In this document: positions 8,518 through 34,124 of the stretch, piece by piece
Layout of the letters: every line of letters begins with the position of its first letter
Numbering within the stretch: position 1 is the first letter of the stretch
Source: Treponema sp.
GTDB taxonomy: Bacteria > Spirochaetota > Spirochaetia > Treponematales > Treponemataceae
Direction: 5' to 3'
DNA length: 64,000 nt
Assembly: GCA_052169915.1 (NCBI GenBank)
Contig: JBQNBN010000003.1
Location: 3,441-67,440 of the forward strand
Program-made: the position numbers and the translations under genes
The notes under the pieces: generated by a model
The model's database searches: none
What the model was told of the DNA's origin: nothing
The model's input: only the letters and a program-made list of their open reading frames with translations

Positions 8518-9380
8518 TTTTCTTTCCTCCTATCGTTTTGCTCCTTCATATTGACGACGACGACATTTTCAAGACGCGCAAAGTCGATGATGGGAACGAT
8601 TTCGATTGCAAGTGACGAATTATAGTCCTGCACGGAGATTTTAGAAATAGTCCCAAGCGGAATATCGCGCATATAGTTGTTGTTTTCGCCGGACGTTACG
8701 ACGATGTCGCCGAAATGCAGTTGGTCGATGAGCCGCTTACGGATATACTGCATGGAAAGCGGACGCTCCGCGCTCCCGTTGCCGGAAACAAGCCCCAAGT
8801 CTCGCGTATTTTGAATGCGCGCCGAAATTATGCAATCGAGGTTATAGACCGGCATAATAATGCTTGTAAACGGCGCGACCTGCACTACTTTCCCAACCAA
8901 TCCTGAGTTTCCATTTTGGTACGCGATAACCGGCATATTCTTTTTTACGCCCGCCGCGCTCCCCTTGTTTATCGTGAGGAATGCATAAACGCTGTCCGTA
9001 TCGCGGGCGATAATTTCTGCAGGGTAATTTTTTTCCGCAAGGGAAAGAGCAAAGCCCAATTGCTCCTTGAGCCGCTCGTTTTCTTTCATTATATCGGCGT
9101 TTGTTCGCCGCATTTGCTCGTAGTTTTCAAGGCGGCGCGTCAGGGCGTCGTAATCTTTCCGGAGTTTTGCCAATTCGTGCACGGATCCGACTGTTCCGCC
9201 GATTCCCTTTGCCGCAAAGTGAACGCCGCTTTGGAGCGAAGACAAAAGCGCAAAGCCTGCCGTCTTAAAATTGACTACAAAGCCGCCTGAACTGAATGCA
9301 AGCATAACGCCTGAGAGAATGACAATAACGGTGAGTAAAAATTCAGACAGTCTGAATGAAAAAACGCGCTTTGCGGACAT
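8514..9380 (-). CDS. mreC: Rod shape-determining protein MreC
   Basis: 288 aa with an N-terminal TM helix, a coiled coil (ENYEQMRRTNADIMKENERLKEQL) and then a beta-rich domain. It lies directly downstream of mreB. Confidence 0.85.
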   Translation of the reverse strand: MSAKRVFSFRLSEFLLTVIVILSGVMLAFSSGGFVVNFKTAGFALLSSLQSGVHFAAKGIGGTVGSVHELAKLRKDYDALTRRLENYEQMRRTNADIMKENERLKEQLGFALSLAEKNYPAEIIARDTDSVYAFLTINKGSAAGVKKNMPVIAYQNGNSGLVGKVVQVAPFTSIIMPVYNLDCIISARIQNTRDLGLVSGNGSAERPLSMQYIRKRLIDQLHFGDIVVTSGENNNYMRDIPLGTISKISVQDYNSSLAIEIVPIIDFARLENVVVVNMKEQNDRRKEK

Positions 9381-10420: not shown

Positions 10421-10485
10421 AAATCCTCCCGGATTTTAAACTTTTTAAGAAATCTGCAATTAAATTGCAACTTTCCTTTTGTTAC

Positions 10486-11550
10486 TCATTTATAATCTGA
10501 AAATTTTGCAAGCGCACCCGGATGATTAACTTGGATTTTCAACGCTTTTCGCCAGAGCGAACGCGCTTTGACCAGATTTCCTTGCTTTTCGTATATTACA
10601 CCAAGTCCATAGTATGCGTCAGCAGAATTTTTATTTTTCTGCAAAATGTTTTCAAATTCCTTTTCGGCCTCGTCAAAATTCCCTTCTTCTGTGTAAATCG
10701 TTCCCAAAAGATTCATGCTTTTTAGGGCCAGACTTTGATCGTCCGTTTCATTCTTTATGCGAAACAGATACTGCTTTGCCGCCGTCGCCTGCCCCGCCTT
10801 GTAATACTGTTCGGCAATGGAAAGAAGAAGCGTATACGATTCCCGCACCAGCAGAGCCTCCGTAAAGGCAGAAATACTTTCCATCGGCATGCCGAGCGCG
10901 GCGTAACTTAATCCAAGATATTCCGGAATATCGTCGGCTTTATAGCCGTGCACGGCTGCGCTCCCCAAATACTTTGCCGCCAAATCCGCATAATAATAAG
11001 AAGAAACCGTGTTTTTATAAAAATACGCCTTACCGAGCATATATTCGATTTGCGGGATAAGACTCCGGCGCGCGCCCTGAAAAGCAAGACGCAGCGAATT
11101 GATCGCCTCATCAAGATAGTTTTGCGCGTCGGCTGTTTCAAGTTGAGAAACGGCGATGTAAAAACTTGAATAGCCGCGATAGGTCAACGCTGCGTTATTG
11201 AGCGGATGAAGCGAAAGAATCTTTGTGCTGATGTCATACGCGGCATTATAATCGTATACGCTCCACGCTTTTTTCAGCGCGCCGATTGTCGGAGACTTTT
11301 CGACATGAGCCGTTATAAATCCGTATAAAAAAAATCCGCCGACGGCAAAGGATGCGATGAGAATAAAAGAAATGGTCAATTTCAGTATGAGATAGTTTTT
11401 TTTTCTCGTTACGTCGCCGTTTCGCACAATCATTCTCCGCTCATTTTTTTTATAAGCCGCAAAATCAACCGAACGAAAAGCGTACTCTCCTTTCGTTTTT
11501 ATCCTGCGTTTACTACGCTCAACGCTCTTTGCATCAGAGCAATTTTGCAT
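10486..11550 (-). CDS. Membrane-anchored TPR repeat protein
   Basis: 354-aa ORF with one TM helix (LILKLTISFILIASFAVGGFFLYGF) followed by TPR-like repeats (AYYGLGVIYEKQGNLVKARSLWRKALKI). The exact start is uncertain. Confidence 0.7.
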   Translation of the reverse strand: MQNCSDAKSVERSKRRIKTKGEYAFRSVDFAAYKKNERRMIVRNGDVTRKKNYLILKLTISFILIASFAVGGFFLYGFITAHVEKSPTIGALKKAWSVYDYNAAYDISTKILSLHPLNNAALTYRGYSSFYIAVSQLETADAQNYLDEAINSLRLAFQGARRSLIPQIEYMLGKAYFYKNTVSSYYYADLAAKYLGSAAVHGYKADDIPEYLGLSYAALGMPMESISAFTEALLVRESYTLLLSIAEQYYKAGQATAAKQYLFRIKNETDDQSLALKSMNLLGTIYTEEGNFDEAEKEFENILQKNKNSADAYYGLGVIYEKQGNLVKARSLWRKALKIQVNHPGALAKFSDYK

Positions 11551-25470: not shown

Positions 25471-27891
25471 CTACTCAAGTTCCGGCTCGCGTTCGTAGTC
25501 GATGATTTCTTCCGCGCCTGCCGACATGTTCGTCGTGTCTCCGCGCTTGAGCGAGCGCACAACGTCTTCGCGGAATTTCCGCCTCCGCGCTTCATTTGCC
25601 TGCGCCGCTCCCGACGGAGAGTTCCCCGTCTGTCGACTGGAATCTGAGCCGTCCGCACGTCCGTTCGCCGTTCCCGACGGCTTTTGCGCGCCGGAAGAAG
25701 ATCGGGCGTTGTCCGCCCCGCCGTTTGCCTGCCGTCCCGTCTGCGCATTCTTCGGCGCGGCATTTTTGTCTTGCGCGCCGCCGTTTTTGCCGCGCGCCGT
25801 ATCGTTTGCGTTCTTTGCGCCGGAGGAGTTTTGATCCGCGCCTGCCGCAGCATTTTGTGAAGCGCGGTTCTGCGCGCCGCCCGCCTTTGCGCCGTTATTT
25901 GCATTGGGGTTTGAAGATGCGGAATTGCCGCTTGCCGCTCCGTTTGTCCGCGAGTTTTCCGCGCTTTGAGGACGACTGCCTGCCGCGCTGTCCGCATTTT
26001 GAGTTTTTCCTGACGCGGCTTCTGCCGTTTTGTCCGTGCTTTGCCGTCCCGTCCTATTGTTTGAAGCGGCTTTATTTCCCTGCGCTCCGTTTCCTTCCGC
26101 GCTTGAGGAATTGCCGTTTTCGCCGCCGTCTTTCTGCGCGTTCTGTCCGCCGTTCTTTGCCGCCGCGTCAGAGTTTTTTCCGTCCGCAGGATTACGCCCG
26201 CTGCCTGCCGCCGCATTATCCTTCCGATTTGCGTCCGACGCTCCGGAGCCGTTTTGTCCGCTGCCGCCGCGTCCGTCATTTTCTTTCGAGGATTGCGCTC
26301 CTTGCGAATTTTTATTTTGCGCATCGCGGCTGCTTTCCGCTCCGCCGGACTTTTTCGCGTCGTCCGCCGCGTTATTGTTACGCTGTCCGTTTTTTTGCTC
26401 CGCTCCGTTTTGTCCGTTTCGCGCGGAAGACGACTGTCCGTTATCCTTTGTATTTGCCGCGGCGTTCGAGCCATCGTCTGCGGTTCCCGTATCGCGAGAG
26501 GCGTCCGCATTACGCCCATCCCCAACTGCCTGCGTATTTTGTCCGTCTCCCGCGCTGCGATTGGAAGAGGCGTTGCTTTCGGCGGATTGTTTTTTCGCTT
26601 GCGCATTCGCGTCTTGTCCGCCGTTTTGTGTTCCGTCTGCGGAACGGACTTTGCCGTCCGCCGTATCGCCCGCTTGAGGATCGCCGCTCGCATTTTGTGT
26701 ACGCCCGTTTGCGCCTTCGTTGCCGGCGGACGAGGAACGCCCCGCTTCGTCTGCGCTCCGTTCCGCTTGCGCATTTTGTGATGCGGACTCTCCGCCGCGC
26801 ATATCGCCGGCATTCATTGACTCGGCATTTTCCGTTTGACTGCGCGCCGTATCGTTTGCGTTCCTTGAACTGGAAGATTTTTGTTCCGATTCGGCAGCGC
26901 CCGCGCGTCCTGTCTGCGCGTATTCGTTTTGTGAGCCGCTGCTTTGTGCGTCCGCATTACGGCCGCCGCCCGCCGCAACTCCGTTGCCGTTTGCCGCGCC
27001 GTCGTTTTCTGTAATACCGTTCCGGTTATTCCCGTTGCCGGAATTTCCGCTTTGCGCGGTATTGGGGGCTCCGTTAAAGCCGCCCGCGCCGCCATTGTTT
27101 CCGGCAGTCCCGTTTCCGTCCGATTGGGTATTCTGCATTCCGCTGCGTTCTTCTCCGGAAGCGTTTGCAAGTCCGCCTGCGGAAGTTCCGCCCGCTCCTT
27201 GCCCGCCGTTCATGCCGACGCCGCTTCCGTCCGCTCCGTTTTGCATTCCGGCGGCATCGCGTACGACGGAGGCCGCTCCGTACCCCGCGGCAATTTTCAT
27301 CAGCGCTTCTTCTATGCGCCGGTTTTCTTCCGCCGTCTGACGCTGGGATTCGGCATAGCGCGCCTCATCTTCCGCTTTTTTGCGCAAGTCTTCAGTCAAA
27401 TAAGAAAGAAGACGCCGAATGTTATCCGCCTGCTCATCGTCGGGTTCAAGTTCAAGAAAACGGCGGTAGTCGGCTTCGGCATCCTTGTATTTTTGCGTCA
27501 TAATGCGCGTGTTCGCGCGGTTCAAAATCGCTTGGGAAAAGTCCGGACGCGCCGCAATCGCAAGCGAAAAACAATTTTCCGCTTTTATGTAGTCGCCCCG
27601 CGTGTAAGCGACGTTGCCTTCATTAAAAGCAATCTGCCTGCGATTTGAAATAGGATTTTTCATACCGCGCTCAAAAGCGTCCATCGCCCGAGCATAGTCG
27701 CCGAGTTGAAAGTACGAAAGTCCCAAAATATTGAAGGTATTGGATTCAACGCGCCCCTCGGCAATTTCTTTTTCAAGAACGGGAGCCGCCTGCTCGGGAT
27801 GATTTTCATTGAAAAGACGCTCGCCTTCGCTTTCGGCATACGCGCCGGACGCCGCTAAAACTGCGGCAAACAAAAAAAACAGTTTTTTCAT
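25471..27891 (-). CDS. Secreted TPR protein with ~560-aa low-complexity region
   Basis: 806 aa with a signal peptide (MKKLFFLFAAVLAASGAYA) and N-terminal TPRs. A very long G/N/A/S/Q/D-rich tract follows, and several overlapping frames stay open across it. Confidence 0.8.
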   Translation of the reverse strand: MKKLFFLFAAVLAASGAYAESEGERLFNENHPEQAAPVLEKEIAEGRVESNTFNILGLSYFQLGDYARAMDAFERGMKNPISNRRQIAFNEGNVAYTRGDYIKAENCFSLAIAARPDFSQAILNRANTRIMTQKYKDAEADYRRFLELEPDDEQADNIRRLLSYLTEDLRKKAEDEARYAESQRQTAEENRRIEEALMKIAAGYGAASVVRDAAGMQNGADGSGVGMNGGQGAGGTSAGGLANASGEERSGMQNTQSDGNGTAGNNGGAGGFNGAPNTAQSGNSGNGNNRNGITENDGAANGNGVAAGGGRNADAQSSGSQNEYAQTGRAGAAESEQKSSSSRNANDTARSQTENAESMNAGDMRGGESASQNAQAERSADEAGRSSSAGNEGANGRTQNASGDPQAGDTADGKVRSADGTQNGGQDANAQAKKQSAESNASSNRSAGDGQNTQAVGDGRNADASRDTGTADDGSNAAANTKDNGQSSSARNGQNGAEQKNGQRNNNAADDAKKSGGAESSRDAQNKNSQGAQSSKENDGRGGSGQNGSGASDANRKDNAAAGSGRNPADGKNSDAAAKNGGQNAQKDGGENGNSSSAEGNGAQGNKAASNNRTGRQSTDKTAEAASGKTQNADSAAGSRPQSAENSRTNGAASGNSASSNPNANNGAKAGGAQNRASQNAAAGADQNSSGAKNANDTARGKNGGAQDKNAAPKNAQTGRQANGGADNARSSSGAQKPSGTANGRADGSDSSRQTGNSPSGAAQANEARRRKFREDVVRSLKRGDTTNMSAGAEEIIDYEREPELE

Positions 27892-29861: not shown

Positions 29862-30089
29862 TTATTGCAATACGTGGTTACCGGTCGGTGAGTGCTGACA
29901 CCGTTGTCCGTAAGTCGTTGTCAGATGTCCGCCCATAGTGCGGGTTTCCCGTCCGCAATAAACGCAGTGAATACCATCTGATAGACATACGTGTTTTTTT
30001 GTAGGACTCGATTTACACTGTTGTCCGTAGTTTGTCGTTAAAGCGTTACCGAGCGCTTTTACTTCTCTTCCGCAATATCTGCATTGCAT
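29862..30089 (-). CDS. Small tandem-repeat Cys/His (zinc-binding-like) protein
   Basis: 75 aa made of two ~37-aa repeats, C-x-Y-C-G-R-E...L-T-T-x-Y-G-Q-x-C-x-x-S-P-T-x-x-H-V. An AGGAGGA RBS overlaps the stop of the upstream gene. Confidence 0.6.
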   Translation of the reverse strand: MQCRYCGREVKALGNALTTNYGQQCKSSPTKKHVCLSDGIHCVYCGRETRTMGGHLTTTYGQRCQHSPTGNHVLQ

Positions 30090-30098
30090 ATTTTCCTC

Positions 30099-30845
30099 CT
30101 ATTTCAGCACAATCATATCTTTATCGCCGAACCAAGCCTCTAAATCAGAAGCAAGCATACGCGGCTCATATATTTTGACTAAACCTTCCATAGATTGCGT
30201 TTGATGCTCGAATAAACACAATATCACTTGTTTCCCATGCTTGATGACGACAGCCGATAATTTGGGATTGCATCTTAACCGGTGCAGGCATTTTTCGTTT
30301 TTGAAAAAGTCAATAACCGTTTCCGCAGTCAATTCATCAACTTCTTCTACCGGTGCAATACCAAGCTTATGCATCTCATCGGATTTTTCAGACAGCGCAT
30401 TTATCAATACCGCTTCGTTTTCCTCACCGTCAGTCTTGAAAATGCCGCCGACTGCCGAAACAAACAGCGCTAACATTCCAGCTGCAACATTTACCTGAAA
30501 CGATTCGGATTCGCCGGTTTTACACCACAATGCAAAGTGCTCGCAATTATTGGTTACAAGGTTGTATTGCCGCTCTCCAATCCGAGAACGCGCCCGCGCA
30601 ACAGTTTCGTCAGGACTATACACGGTATGAGTATTCATAAATGCATCGCTGAACCGTCCGACAATAATTTCATTCTTCTGTGCAAATTGTTCAAGAGGCG
30701 CTTCGTGAATGCAAATATCATCGCCGAAATCTCCGTTTAATGCCGCGTAATGAATAACCGTCCCGTTTCCTGCATAAATACCGTAATATTTGTAAAGTAT
30801 GCGGTTTACAATCAAAATATCGCCGCGCCGTAGGGCAGTCCTCAT
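30099..30845 (-). CDS. LRAT/PLAAT-type NlpC-P60 superfamily protein + TM helix + shared C-terminal module
   Basis: 248 aa with GDILIVNR..YKYYGIYAGNGTVIHYA...NCEHFALWCKTG (permuted His...Cys order). A TM helix (VAAGMLALFVSAVGGIF) follows, and the tail ends FGDKDMIVLK. Confidence 0.8.
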   Translation of the reverse strand: MRTALRRGDILIVNRILYKYYGIYAGNGTVIHYAALNGDFGDDICIHEAPLEQFAQKNEIIVGRFSDAFMNTHTVYSPDETVARARSRIGERQYNLVTNNCEHFALWCKTGESESFQVNVAAGMLALFVSAVGGIFKTDGEENEAVLINALSEKSDEMHKLGIAPVEEVDELTAETVIDFFKNEKCLHRLRCNPKLSAVVIKHGKQVILCLFEHQTQSMEGLVKIYEPRMLASDLEAWFGDKDMIVLK

Positions 30846-30913
30846 AGTAAATCCTCAAATAGAAATGGATGCGGCAGCGGCCGATTATAGGCGGCATCTC
30901 GCACCCGCTTTTA

Positions 30914-31255
30914 TCAGTTTAAAACAATCATCGGTTTATCGCCGAACATAGTTTTTAAGTCTTCTGCCATCGACGTAAATCGATAAGAAACAAATTCTTC
31001 CTCCACGCGGTTTTCTTCTTTATTGAAGCAAGCCAACGTAATAATATTCTTAGTACTGCCTTTGACGGCAACCGCCAAAAGATTTGTGTTTTGCTTGAGT
31101 TTCTGCAAAACCTCGGGGCGTTTAAAAAACGTAATGACCGTTTCAGCGGAAAGAACATCAATGACGATAGGCTGCAATGCGCCTTTCGTCCCTTTGAAAA
31201 AAATTATTGCGCCGACGCTGATAATAACAATACCGATAATGATTGCGATATACAC
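30914..31255 (-). CDS. Small membrane protein with shared C-terminal module
   Basis: 113 aa with a GTG start and an AAGGAGG RBS. It has an N-terminal TM helix (YIAIIIGIVIISVGAIIFF), and the tail ends FGDKPMIVLN. Confidence 0.65.
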   Translation of the reverse strand: MYIAIIIGIVIISVGAIIFFKGTKGALQPIVIDVLSAETVITFFKRPEVLQKLKQNTNLLAVAVKGSTKNIITLACFNKEENRVEEEFVSYRFTSMAEDLKTMFGDKPMIVLN

Positions 31256-31265
31256 ATATACCTCC

Positions 31266-31604
31266 TTAGGTCAAAACAATCATCGCTTTATCGCCGAAAT
31301 TCTGACGGGTTTCGGCATCAAGCTCTTCCGCCTCAATACCTTGCGCGTCTTCTTCCATATCAACGACTTCGCCGGTTGCTTTATTAAAAAGACAGTTAAT
31401 CGTATTAAAATTTCCGTTATCGAGATTGTCTTTTACTACAGCAGCAATTATGTCCTTATTCTGTTGTAATTTCCGCAGCCGGTTCGGATCTTTAAAAAAG
31501 CTTACAATGTGAGTAAAAAATTGCAGCACCTTATGAAAAATATGCTTTATATAATTCCATATCCCTCGTACGATTTTGACAATCGCATCTATAACAAATC
31601 CCAT
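31266..31604 (-). CDS. Small protein (amphipathic N-helix) with shared C-terminal module
   Basis: 112 aa with a GAGGAG RBS inside the stop region of the upstream gene. The tail ends FGDKAMIVLT. Confidence 0.65.
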   Translation of the reverse strand: MGFVIDAIVKIVRGIWNYIKHIFHKVLQFFTHIVSFFKDPNRLRKLQQNKDIIAAVVKDNLDNGNFNTINCLFNKATGEVVDMEEDAQGIEAEELDAETRQNFGDKAMIVLT

Positions 31605-31614
31605 TGTATTCTCC

Positions 31615-32151
31615 TCATTTTAAAAGCAGCATGTTTTTATCCGCTAATTGCGCTTTAAGGTCTGCATCAAGGGTCTTTGCATAAAAAATTTTATGCGCTT
31701 CCGAGCCGTCTAAAATCGGTTTATTGTCCTTATTAAGAAAGAATAAATTATATTCCTTTATTCCGTCCACACGCTGAGAATCATGATCCGTTTTTTTAGG
31801 AACTAAAAAACAAACTGCGCTATGGCTGTTTTGATTAAAATGCCGTTTACTCCACGCAATAAGCGACTCAAACGTAATAATCTCAACCGTTTCTTCTTCT
31901 ACATTCCATGCCATTGTGAGCAATGCACTGATGCCGCCCATCTCTTTGATAGCCGTTTGGTATTCTCCAACTTTATCAGAAAAGGGTTTCAGCATATCGA
32001 GCAAAATCTTCTTAAAGTTTTTTGCGACTTCATCGATGTTCAAGTCATCAATACCAGTTTTGCGAGTCGCTTTGCCGATGCTTTCTTTCGCTATCTTTTC
32101 CAGTTGCTCTTTTAGATTGAGTTCATCATCTACCGTGTCTTTTAAACTCAT
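31615..32151 (-). CDS. Helical-domain protein with divergent copy of shared C-terminal module
   Basis: 178 aa with an ATGA start/stop overlap with the AAA ATPase gene. The tail ends LADKNMLLLK. Confidence 0.65.
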   Translation of the reverse strand: MSLKDTVDDELNLKEQLEKIAKESIGKATRKTGIDDLNIDEVAKNFKKILLDMLKPFSDKVGEYQTAIKEMGGISALLTMAWNVEEETVEIITFESLIAWSKRHFNQNSHSAVCFLVPKKTDHDSQRVDGIKEYNLFFLNKDNKPILDGSEAHKIFYAKTLDADLKAQLADKNMLLLK

Positions 32152-33461
32152 TTTTGTTCCTCCTCCTGAGTTTTTTGTTGATCGGTTTCTTTTACTACAT
32201 TGTAGTTTTTTGTTTCGATATTCTGTTTTATGTCTGCGCTTAAGCTTTTTCTCCGTTCCTCCTTTTTGAGTTTTATCTCGTCCCGTTTATTTTTATCCTC
32301 TGTGAATACTGCAGTAAACAATTCCGGTGTAAGCTTTTGCTCCTCGGAAGTTGCGGCTTTAATGAGCGTATTCAACACAAGATTTTTTAATTCACGCGGT
32401 GCGAGCTCTTCAGATAAGTCGCCCAACGTATTCCAAAATTCCTCTCCCGCCTGATCTTTATCAAATGGAGCTTTTGAAGGAATATGCTTTTTGATTATTT
32501 CAATGCGTAGGTTTTTATCGGGCAGCCTAAATTGAATGTGCTTGAGTATTCTGCTTTCAAATGCTGAGTCATAATTTTCTTTTAAGTTAGTAGCAAAGAT
32601 CGTAATGACATCGTAGGTTTCAAGGAGAATAAGCATTTGGCTGCGCAGCGAGTTAATAGCTTGATCGGAACTGGATGCGACATTGGTAATCCGTTTACCT
32701 AAAAAAGAATCCGCTTCGTCAAAAAATAAGACAGCTCCCGTTTCTTTTGCTTTTTTAAAAGCGGCAACTAAATTCTTTGGAGCATCGCCGACAAATTTTG
32801 ATTCAATGTCGGAATAGTTCAGCGGTAAAAACGGCATTCCTAATTCTTTTACAATGGCATGAGCAGCCATTGTTTTACCGGTTCCCGGCGGTCCATAAAA
32901 GTTGACTACTGAACGAGCAACAGGGTCAATTTCGGAAAAGCCCCATTCGTTGTAAATTAAATCCCGCTTTTTAATCAGCGTGATAACACTGTTTAATTCC
33001 GCGGCAATTTCTACTGGCAGTATGAGCTGCGAAAGTGAATAACGCGGTGTAACCGGCTCTACGTTTAAACGTACTTCATCATCTTGCGGTTTTTCTTTTT
33101 TTTCATCCACAGTATGTTCCTTTTTCGGTTTCTTTTGCGGATCGCCTATAATCCGTATTGTGATGCGGTGTTTTTCCATTTCAGTACGGTATTTTTTTAC
33201 CGAACAGTCCGCCATTGCCATAAATACCGACCATTTAATGTCGGTATTACTACTTTTCTTGCTTTTATCGTACAGAATACATGCAAAATACGTGCTTTCA
33301 TCCCAATCAGGTTCTCCGTAGGAAAAAGTACATTCGACTGCCTCTATATCCCCGACAGCGCTTTCAAGTTTTTGCACATATTGTGTGTATAGTTCTTCTG
33401 AAAGAGCTTCGATAAAAGCAAAATCTTCTTTTTTATTACGATGATTAATAGTAAAGTTCAT
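32148..33461 (-). CDS. Classical-clade AAA ATPase with unrecognised N-terminal domain
   Basis: 437 aa with Walker A GPPGTGKT, Walker B LFFDEAD, sensor-1 FATN and the second region of homology (NYDSAFESRI). The ~190-aa N-domain and the Lys/Glu-rich tail are not recognised. Confidence 0.9.
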   Translation of the reverse strand: MNFTINHRNKKEDFAFIEALSEELYTQYVQKLESAVGDIEAVECTFSYGEPDWDESTYFACILYDKSKKSSNTDIKWSVFMAMADCSVKKYRTEMEKHRITIRIIGDPQKKPKKEHTVDEKKEKPQDDEVRLNVEPVTPRYSLSQLILPVEIAAELNSVITLIKKRDLIYNEWGFSEIDPVARSVVNFYGPPGTGKTMAAHAIVKELGMPFLPLNYSDIESKFVGDAPKNLVAAFKKAKETGAVLFFDEADSFLGKRITNVASSSDQAINSLRSQMLILLETYDVITIFATNLKENYDSAFESRILKHIQFRLPDKNLRIEIIKKHIPSKAPFDKDQAGEEFWNTLGDLSEELAPRELKNLVLNTLIKAATSEEQKLTPELFTAVFTEDKNKRDEIKLKKEERRKSLSADIKQNIETKNYNVVKETDQQKTQEEEQK

Positions 33462-33472
33462 GCAAGAATTCC

Positions 33473-34063
33473 TTATGCTATTAAAGAAATTTCTCTGCCC
33501 TCGTAGATTTCATTCTCATCCACTTCTTCTGCTGAAAATTCTACTTCATCTATAAGCCCTTCAGCATCATGTAAACCGACCTTCACCGTCTTATAACCGT
33601 CCTTAGTTTTCAAACATTTCAAAATTTTTGCGTTCAGCGCTTTTCTCTTTAGTTCCGCTTGTTTCTTTTTTAGTTCTTCTTTTAATTTTTTAAGGTCTAA
33701 GCGCTTAATAATCGCATATGCGACACCGGCAGCACCGGCGGCAATTCCCAATTTTACTAATTGAGAAAAGACCATTCCGACGACACCGACATCATCCAAT
33801 AATCCAGCAATCGGAATAATATCCGGTACTATATCAAGCGGACTGACAATATAAATTAACCCGCCGATAATAATGGCTTTCATGTATGCAGGAGTAGACG
33901 GCGAATTAAACGCTTTCCACATTGCTTGAATCTTGTTCCAAACGGCAGCAAGCGGACCTTTATTCATCGAATCAAGTTTCTTCGACACATTATCGATGTC
34001 AGCTTGGCTGGCATTTTTTCCCATTTTCTCTGCCATTGACTGGGCTTTTTCCTCATCAGTCAT
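33473..34063 (-). CDS. DUF1232 (YkvA-like) membrane protein with coiled coil and short C-terminal module-like tail
   Basis: SPLDIVPDIIPIAGLLDDVG is the DUF1232 hallmark. The start is chosen at MTDEEKAQ, which has an AAGGAG RBS, rather than at the upstream ORF-track start. Confidence 0.8.
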   Translation of the reverse strand: MTDEEKAQSMAEKMGKNASQADIDNVSKKLDSMNKGPLAAVWNKIQAMWKAFNSPSTPAYMKAIIIGGLIYIVSPLDIVPDIIPIAGLLDDVGVVGMVFSQLVKLGIAAGAAGVAYAIIKRLDLKKLKEELKKKQAELKRKALNAKILKCLKTKDGYKTVKVGLHDAEGLIDEVEFSAEEVDENEIYEGREISLIA

Positions 34064-34124
34064 AAAAACTCCTTGCCGCCGTGCGGCGAATGTTTTGTCC
34101 GTATGCGTTCCGCATCGCATTCGG

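Follow-up and report, generated by a model that had tools for sequence, protein, structure and literature searches.

A C-terminal domain common to four consecutive proteins of a Treponema operon, its linkage to an AAA+ ATPase, and a possible role in restraining membrane-active proteins

What is a common C-terminal module for, when the proteins that carry it begin with unlike heads? The question is raised by four consecutive genes, here called C, D, E and F, in a 64,000-nucleotide stretch of DNA from Treponema sp. (GenBank assembly GCA_052169915.1, contig JBQNBN010000003.1, positions 3,441 to 67,440 of the forward strand), which at its full length we refer to as the window. The genes belong to an operon (A to G; Table 1) that also encodes an AAA+ ATPase, B, and a membrane protein with a DUF1232 domain, A. 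An initial annotation had noticed that the four proteins end alike and had taken the shared tail, estimated at about 70 amino acids (aa), for an effector-associated or adaptor domain of a conflict system centered on a nucleoside triphosphatase (NTPase). We find that each of the four proteins carries one homologous C-terminal domain, and the conserved heart of the operon appears from sequence comparison to be the ATPase together with the paralogs C, D and E.

The homology of the tails is evident at two levels. In pairwise BLASTP comparisons of the whole proteins, with the search space set at 1e6 residues, only the tails of C, D, E and F were alignable: those of E and F matched over 81 aa at 41% identity (E-value 1.9e-11), those of D and E over 79 aa at 37% identity (1.6e-8), and those of D and F with an E-value of 1e-3, while the tail of C gave no significant pairwise match to the others (0.85 against F). 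In a profile-profile comparison, however, hhalign aligned the D/E/F-type and C-type profiles end to end (76 columns, probability 90%, E-value 1.7e-6), and a hidden Markov model (HMM) built from D, E and F only detects the C-type orthologs at other loci with E-values of 8e-10 to 4e-3. The tail of C is thus best seen, at the profile level, as a divergent member of the family, as the initial annotation had suspected. The suggestion that four neighboring proteins share one tail holds for D, E and F by BLASTP and for C by profile comparison; its size has to be revised upward, to about 85-92 aa. Chance similarity is rejected by the BLASTP results, the profile comparison and the HMMER family search described below. 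Conservation within the module is highest at an FFK-x-P turn, at a K...N/D-G hairpin and at the end, which reads F-G-D-K-D-M-I-V-L-x.

The initial annotation had described the heads correctly. In F, a domain of the LRAT/NlpC-P60 type (aa 5-113; Pfam LRAT, 1.1e-24, 87.5 bits against a cutoff of 24.3) is followed by a hydrophobic segment (aa 118-140), a linker and then the module. E begins with a transmembrane helix (Kyte-Doolittle hydropathy of 2.9 over aa 2-20) and D with a strongly amphipathic helix (hydrophobic moment of 0.73 over aa 5-22), while the head of C is charged, about 85 aa long and without a family match in the library scans. No transmembrane helix was found in D-type or C-type proteins. 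Since positive charges follow the transmembrane helix and the ATPase is cytoplasmic, we infer that the module faces the cytoplasm; the amphipathic helix of D would lie in the plane of the membrane.

C, D and E each resemble members of their class from other genera more closely than they resemble their operon neighbors. Scores are 86-119 bits between D-type proteins of different genera, compared with 39-76 bits between D and E and 20-38 bits between D and C, and D is the best conserved of the three. By these comparisons, C, D and E represent three ancient paralog classes, each orthologous across genera.

The module could not be assigned to a known family, in keeping with the initial annotation. 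Searches with C, D, E and F returned only sub-threshold noise from Pfam (2025), NCBIfam, PADLOC and PHROGs, and 29 module sequences scanned singly against Pfam gave no match at all. A profile search of the PDB retrieved a single entry, a designed repeat protein in which no stretch passed, and we judged it spurious. AlphaFold2 (AF2), supplied with a 29-sequence alignment, modeled the module of E confidently (pLDDT 95.1, pTM 0.83) with the predicted topology β-α-α-β-β-β-α-β. Foldseek comparison of this model with the PDB (best E-value 0.27, TM-score ≤0.35) and with BFVD (best E-value 0.013, TM-score 0.29) produced candidates that we rejected as non-matches; no PDB fold was matched, ubiquitin-like folds included. 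Judged against these two structure collections, the module is provisionally a new fold. When 1.84 billion representatives were searched exhaustively with HMMER, the module proved to belong to a family of 455 clusters (50% identity) at E-values ≤1e-3, 182 of them at ≤1e-10. The position of the module is strict: 185 of the 189 matches retrieved with the module HMM reach its final positions, and in 178 of these 185 proteins the end of the module is the exact C-terminus. The heads of the retrieved proteins have a median length of 30 aa. No description of the cassette emerged from the literature on DUF1232 in combination with AAA, on LRAT in anti-phage settings or on conflict systems with TerB, LRAT and AAA+, and both the domain and the AAA-C-D-E arrangement seem to be new to the libraries and literature searched.

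If the module has a constant partner, it is the ATPase. We recovered loci with module genes from genomes and metagenomes and treated a locus as adequately flanked when 2 kb or more lay on each side of its module genes. All 15 such loci have an AAA+ gene within 2.5 kb of the module genes. Of the 36 loci taken together, 25 do, and the others are cut by contig ends. The order AAA-C-D-E is found in metagenome-assembled genomes (MAGs) of Treponema and in Brachyspira alvinipulli, Helicobacter saguini, H. didelphidarum and Helicobacter sp. CLO-3; H. felis has C-D-E on a contig that ends just upstream, where the position of the ATPase falls out of sight. C-type orthologs directly follow the AAA+ gene at L003, L006-L010, L013, L014 and L019-L023, and at L021 genes A to F recur as six genes in the same order as in the window. 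Metagenomes also contain a second order, (C)-D-E-(small transmembrane protein)-AAA, and even distant AAA+ homologs (about 55% identity) retain at least a divergent D-type partner. Scanning 185,579 species representatives yielded six confirmed loci, in Treponema, Brachyspira, Helicobacter and a Helicobacteraceae MAG; the scan requires the exact motif FGDKDMIV, derived from a 10-sequence alignment, and therefore undercounts the genomes that carry the family.

Around this core, further genes recur as optional partners: DUF1232 proteins, TerB (L002, L003 and L006), a CxxCxxCC protein, zinc-ribbon proteins resembling G, NYN and FGE-sulfatase. The LRAT-module proteins likewise are optional and always stand after E; the architecture of F is found in this position at L013, L014, L016, L021 and L030. 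A divergently oriented XRE-type helix-turn-helix (HTH) gene adjoins the cassette not only in the window but also at L007/L020, L041 and L045. At positions 4506-7122 of L003, from a Treponemataceae MAG (GCA_038397925.1), nothing but the final 151 aa of the AAA+ protein is left; genes for DUF4365 and T5orf172/MUG113 proteins lie on the opposite strand where the rest is expected, and C, D and E are intact. This ATPase looks as if it had been split or decapitated by an insertion.

The sequence of B identifies it as a single-domain AAA+ protein of the classical clade, of the polypeptide translocase type. Its best matches among PDB sequences are VAT and p97/Cdc48 (1.7e-37). It has the motifs GPPGTGKT and FFDEAD (Walker B residues D248 and E249), the pore loop K222-F-V-G225, N292 as sensor 1 and R304 as the arginine finger, and across 60 homologs Walker A and B, the pore loop (K-[F/Y]-V-G), sensor 1 and the arginine finger are invariant or nearly so. 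In the AF2 model (pLDDT 83), residues 1-110 fold into an α/β N-domain, which a disordered linker rich in Lys and Glu (111-130) joins to the AAA core; a long helix follows at the C-terminus. Foldseek ranks Msp1, proteasomal Rpt, Vps4 and FtsHi highest, all of them polypeptide translocases, and the core matches Msp1 with an E-value of 3e-15. B resembles Msp1/ATAD1 and Vps4, AAA+ enzymes of the classical/meiotic clade whose substrates are membrane-bound, in these matches, in its conserved pore loop and in having membrane-anchored partners with a domain predicted to be cytosolic; it differs from both, since it has neither a transmembrane anchor (maximum hydropathy of 1.48 over 19 residues, and an N-domain that is soluble in the AF2 model) nor a MIT domain, and it is not an Msp1 ortholog. 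In contrast to the highly conserved core, the N-domain diverges fast between genera, a search with it retrieving only four close relatives, and nothing in it suggests a copy of the module. The linked ATPase subfamily comprises over 2,000 clusters (90% identity).

Is the module also present, in part, on other proteins of the cassette? A full copy was found with the module HMM neither in the AAA+ protein of the window or of any locus nor in the tail of A. The tails of the DUF1232 proteins and of small transmembrane proteins from 12 cassettes, however, form an alignable family of their own, with a consensus of roughly [IV]-K-x-x-L-x-x-G-[DN]-Y-x-x-V-x-[VI]-G-L-Y-D ... I-Y-E-G-x-x-I, and the profile of these tails matches the module profile locally over module positions 31-80 (hhalign probability 84%, E-value 7.4e-6). 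The tail of A lacks both the N-terminal β1-α1-α2 part and the FGDKxMIVL end, and we interpret it, at modest significance, as a truncated module copy. The "shortened fifth copy" of the initial annotation survives in this restricted form: as a local profile match, not as a match to the full module.

Applied to 1,951 open reading frames (ORFs) from the window and 40 loci, a mini-HMM built on the D-type hairpin gave matches outside the module which, at E-values below 1, lie inside cassettes with a single exception. They fall in DUF1232 tails, in small transmembrane proteins, in a protein of 439 aa and at the C-terminal end of the AAA+ proteins. The AAA+ tails score between 0.001 and 0.2 among 1,023-1,951 ORFs, and their consensus RKxxLxxxIKxNLxxxNYxV is kept across the 60 homologs. 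AF2 places the motif in a helix, at the end of the long C-terminal helix, and it may not be equivalent to the module hairpin; no docking of the motif on the N-domain could be read from the single-chain AF2 model of B.

Small proteins that combine a transmembrane helix with a truncated module (hairpin) are encoded at L033 (1277-1636, with two hairpin repeats), L029 (5949-6221), L026 (2335-2610), L015 (7266-7601) and L045 (5732-6001). In the loci with the order D-E-x-AAA, such proteins stand directly upstream of the AAA+ gene, where they apparently take the place of the DUF1232 protein. As for A itself, its DUF1232 domain is well supported (44.1 bits against a cutoff of 23; E-value 1.7e-11), and homologs adjoin the cassette at L003, L007, L013, L014, L019-L021 and L024. 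Its true start is probably the methionine at 34063, 19 codons inside the listed ORF (34063-34120), as all homologs begin there (MTDEEKAQ...).

These results bear directly on the adaptor model suggested by the initial annotation, in which homotypic contacts of the module would bring exchangeable effectors to the NTPase. As defined by Kaur et al. (2020), an effector-associated domain (EAD) is a small, non-enzymatic domain at the N- or C-terminus, present on the core NTPase, of which further copies are fused to effector or signaling domains, usually enzymatic ones, in adjacent genes, the copies of adjacent genes being each other's closest relatives (PMC7159879). The module is likewise small, non-enzymatic and terminal, and it is common to NTPase-linked proteins of one operon that include an LRAT enzyme as well as non-enzymatic proteins; at L002, seven module genes follow one another in tandem, and the short motif recurs in the AAA+ tail, the DUF1232 tails and the small transmembrane proteins of the same cassettes. 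In other respects the two part ways. The core NTPase, which here is a classical AAA+ unfoldase and not a MoxR, STAND or GAP1 protein, carries no full copy of the module, and the motif in its tail is weak and modeled as helical. The copies within an operon are ancient, orthologous paralog classes and not lineage-specific twins. Among the heads surveyed, diversity was low. In a survey of the best 150 of the 455 family representatives, most heads were a single transmembrane helix (E-type) or an amphipathic helix with the signature W-x-[FY]-[IV]-K-K-I (D-type); a minority were helical and C-type, some longer heads received no family assignment, and LRAT, on three representatives (P0106, P0123 and P0151) in addition to F, was the sole enzymatic and sole Pfam-recognizable head. 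Of the EAD logic, then, the small, terminal and non-enzymatic character stands, while the copy on the NTPase and the close kinship of the copies do not; enzymatic heads exist but are the exception among the best 150 representatives. We regard the adaptor model as unlikely. The picture that emerges from these comparisons is of a fixed set of three paralogs with optional extras, and not of a mobile adaptor shuffled among effectors.

What such a set might do is suggested by a known system. In the toxin-antitoxin and anti-phage system IetAS (Ietis), the toxic partner is held in check by an AAA+ ATPase that acts as antitoxin (PMC13069673); by analogy, B may restrain a latent membrane-damaging assembly. 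Both systems center on a single-domain classical AAA+ ATPase, and B matches the IetA model of PADLOC over most of its length (8.7e-31); here, however, the partners are three or four small module proteins, mostly membrane-anchored, and the analogy is one of logic, not of membership. We therefore put forward, at a confidence that stops a little short of even, that the cassette consists of an AAA+ unfoldase that restrains membrane-active module proteins in the manner of a toxin-antitoxin or abortive-infection system. The module would serve as a common handle on C, D, E and F, by which B recognizes these proteins, keeps them separate, extracts them or unfolds them, so that ongoing ATP hydrolysis would keep the membrane-active proteins harmless. 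Were B to be inhibited, titrated or lost, as might happen in phage infection, energy collapse or loss of the island, the C/D/E set would assemble through the shared domain, with F joining where it is present, and would damage the membrane.

This proposal is consistent with the significant homology of the tails, their strict C-terminal position, the linkage to the AAA+ gene, the intact ATPase with its pore loop, and heads that look like membrane anchors. A role in conflict is supported by the defense and toxin-antitoxin genes that neighbor the cassette at independent loci: a type III restriction endonuclease (2.8e-271) and SoFic (2e-114) at L041, LeoBC and LeoA (about 1e-90) directly upstream of the cassette at L021, a DinG/Csf4-like helicase at L009, clusters of toxin-antitoxin genes at L043 and HipA at L007. 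The optional LRAT, NYN and FGE-sulfatase partners also look effector-like. The NTPase-centered conflict setting of the initial annotation is thus upheld as regards the NTPase, and plausible as regards the conflict.

Several observations weigh against the proposal. B scores only 86 bits against the NCBIfam model IteA_antiphage, far below its equivalog cutoff of 510, and library scans of the operon genes found no peptidase S8 match, and hence no IetS-like subtilisin protease. No PADLOC model matches C, D, E or F. The operon in the window is flanked by ordinary genes, among them those for a LuxR-type regulator and the Era GTPase, and not by defense genes. No copy of the module was found in 50,697 phage genomes or in plasmids (tblastn), nor in 2.9 million viral contigs, and mobility of the cassette is only implied. 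TerB and DUF1232 partners would suit a membrane-stress function equally well. Finally, F of the window may be enzymatically weak or impaired, as it has a tyrosine in place of an otherwise invariant histidine: it reads YKYYGIY (30770-30790; aa about 19-25), whereas all seven relatives that cover this region read Y[KY]HYG[IV]Y or YYHFGIY. We take this position to be that of the first catalytic histidine of PLAAT-type enzymes (the equivalent of His23 of PLAAT3). Alternatively, the tyrosine may be an error in the MAG.

In other respects F is a clear LRAT protein, which keeps the catalytic-cysteine motif NCEHF and the second histidine. The hydrophobic anchor that follows its LRAT domain resembles that of the PLAAT (H-RAS-like suppressor) phospholipase-acyltransferases. 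Apart from the tyrosine, F differs from these in its C-terminal module and in being encoded within an AAA+ cassette. L014 encodes, about 2.5 kb downstream of the cassette, a second LRAT-like protein of 297 aa (10477-11367) whose module ends in FGNRNMCILS; this paralog is apparently inactive, NCEHF being replaced by NSRKAF.

The same facts about the membrane allow a different account, in which C, D and E form the hetero-oligomeric scaffold of a structural complex for envelope stress or remodeling, the AAA+ protein is the motor of its assembly and disassembly, much as Vps4 recycles ESCRT-III or Msp1 clears tail-anchored proteins, and TerB and DUF1232 proteins sense stress. A defined hetero-complex is suggested by the single C, D and E genes, whose order is constant from genus to genus, and the fold neighbors of B include Msp1 and Vps4, with a match to NCBIfam CdvC (3.4e-20) besides. 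Recurrent TerB (at the three loci named above) and DUF1232 (in the window, L003, L007, L013, L014 and L019-L021) would suit such a complex, as would the placement of the cassette among housekeeping genes at some Helicobacter loci. Yet the cassette is patchily distributed, in a way that looks like horizontal transfer, with just the six loci of the FGDKDMIV scan; LRAT, NYN and FGE-sulfatase as add-ons, and the defense and toxin-antitoxin neighbors, fit conflict systems better; and the lack of a MIT domain and of a transmembrane anchor in B sets it apart from the two models. We consider this account improbable, if a good deal less so than a phage origin. In the latter, the operon would be a remnant lysis or holin-like cassette, or would encode small secreted peptides, the transmembrane heads being holin helices or signal peptides. 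Small proteins in tandem with N-terminal hydrophobic helices do recall such cassettes, and PHROGs families match both the AAA+ protein (phrog_3757, 1.6e-53) and the DUF1232 protein (phrog_14750, 3.6e-16); against this, the module itself is unmatched in PHROGs and BFVD as well as in the phage genomes and viral contigs mentioned above, no other phage genes lie nearby, and the D-type and C-type proteins have no transmembrane helix. A phage origin is therefore very improbable.

To return to restraint by the ATPase, a bolder form of that proposal can be sketched. UBX-domain cofactors bind p97, one docking domain being carried on differing heads. The module may be comparable, as one domain common to several clients or cofactors of an AAA+ machine that it is proposed to bind. 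The cassette would then represent an undescribed class of defense or addiction system, in which a Cdc48/Msp1-like AAA+ protein polices a latent membrane-disrupting C/D/E hetero-oligomer and optional lipase, RNase or other effectors; the new-fold domain would act as a UBX-like docking domain, and the truncated hairpins on DUF1232 and transmembrane proteins and on the ATPase tail would be competitors or regulators. We offer this as speculation that is, on present evidence, unlikely in its full extent.

Table 1. Coordinates of the operon, its divergent regulator and the module copies, given as positions in the 64,000-nucleotide window.
Feature	Position	Strand	Remarks
Genes A to G		-	Seven-gene operon, closely spaced
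XRE-type HTH regulator, 105 aa	34270..34587	+	Divergent; Pfam HTH_3, 4.5e-10
Gene A, DUF1232 membrane protein	33473..34120	-	Pfam DUF1232 (PF06803)
Tail of A, putative truncated module copy	33476..33643	-	β2-β3 hairpin through last strand region
Gene B, AAA+ ATPase, 437 aa	32148..33461	-	Pfam AAA, 3.3e-28
C-terminal tail motif of B, SADIKQNIETKNYNVV (aa 411-423)	32193..32231	-	Resembles D-type β2-β3 hairpin
Gene C, 178 aa	31615..32151	-	Start overlaps stop of B by 4 nt
Module in C	31618..31896	-	
Gene D, 112 aa	31266..31604	-	Module HMM, E-value 4e-39
Module in D	31269..31547	-	
Gene E, 113 aa	30914..31255	-	Module HMM, E-value 2e-29
Module in E	30917..31171	-	
Gene F, LRAT protein, 248 aa	30099..30845	-	Module HMM, E-value 2.3e-23
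Module in F	30102..30347	-	
Gene G, 75 aa, double zinc-ribbon-like	29862..30089	-	Final operon gene, 9 nt past F

The genes of the operon are separated by 11, -4, 10, 10, 68 and 9 nucleotides (nt) from A to G, and their GC content of 0.39-0.41 marks a low-GC patch between flanks of about 0.47-0.50. Scans for promoters and terminators in the window gave counts no higher than expected from shuffled sequence. G contains two zinc-ribbon-like CxxC...C...H repeats, with only weak Pfam zinc-finger matches, and has a homolog at L003/L004 (phmmer 3.8e-11; 8914-9129 at L003). By eye, G-like YCxYCG...C..HP proteins were also seen beside the cassettes of L014 (3892-4239), L020 (7914-8162) and L023 (1316-1564), and further small CxxC proteins adjoin the divergent cassettes of L041 (9129-9503) and L043 (5787-5987). 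Elsewhere in the window, positions 25471-27891 of the minus strand encode a protein of 806 aa in which a signal-like segment at the N-terminus and a TPR-like region precede about 550 aa of low complexity rich in G, N, A, S and Q; this protein explains why the region between 24 and 28 kb is high in GC, strongly AT-skewed and full of overlapping spurious ORFs.

The module thus defines a domain family that lies outside all four libraries searched and is linked to one AAA+ subfamily in gut and oral spirochetes, Helicobacter and many metagenomes. The cassette appears to be kin to AAA+-gated toxin-antitoxin or defense operons, and there is a genuine possibility that it is more distinct than that. 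If the proposed restraint by the ATPase is true, the cassette would add a membrane-targeting, ATPase-gated system to the repertoire of defense and toxin-antitoxin systems, and would offer a simple bacterial model of one AAA+ machine that recognizes several clients through a common domain. Even if its function should prove to be envelope homeostasis, the cassette would provide a clean, testable unit of four small genes.

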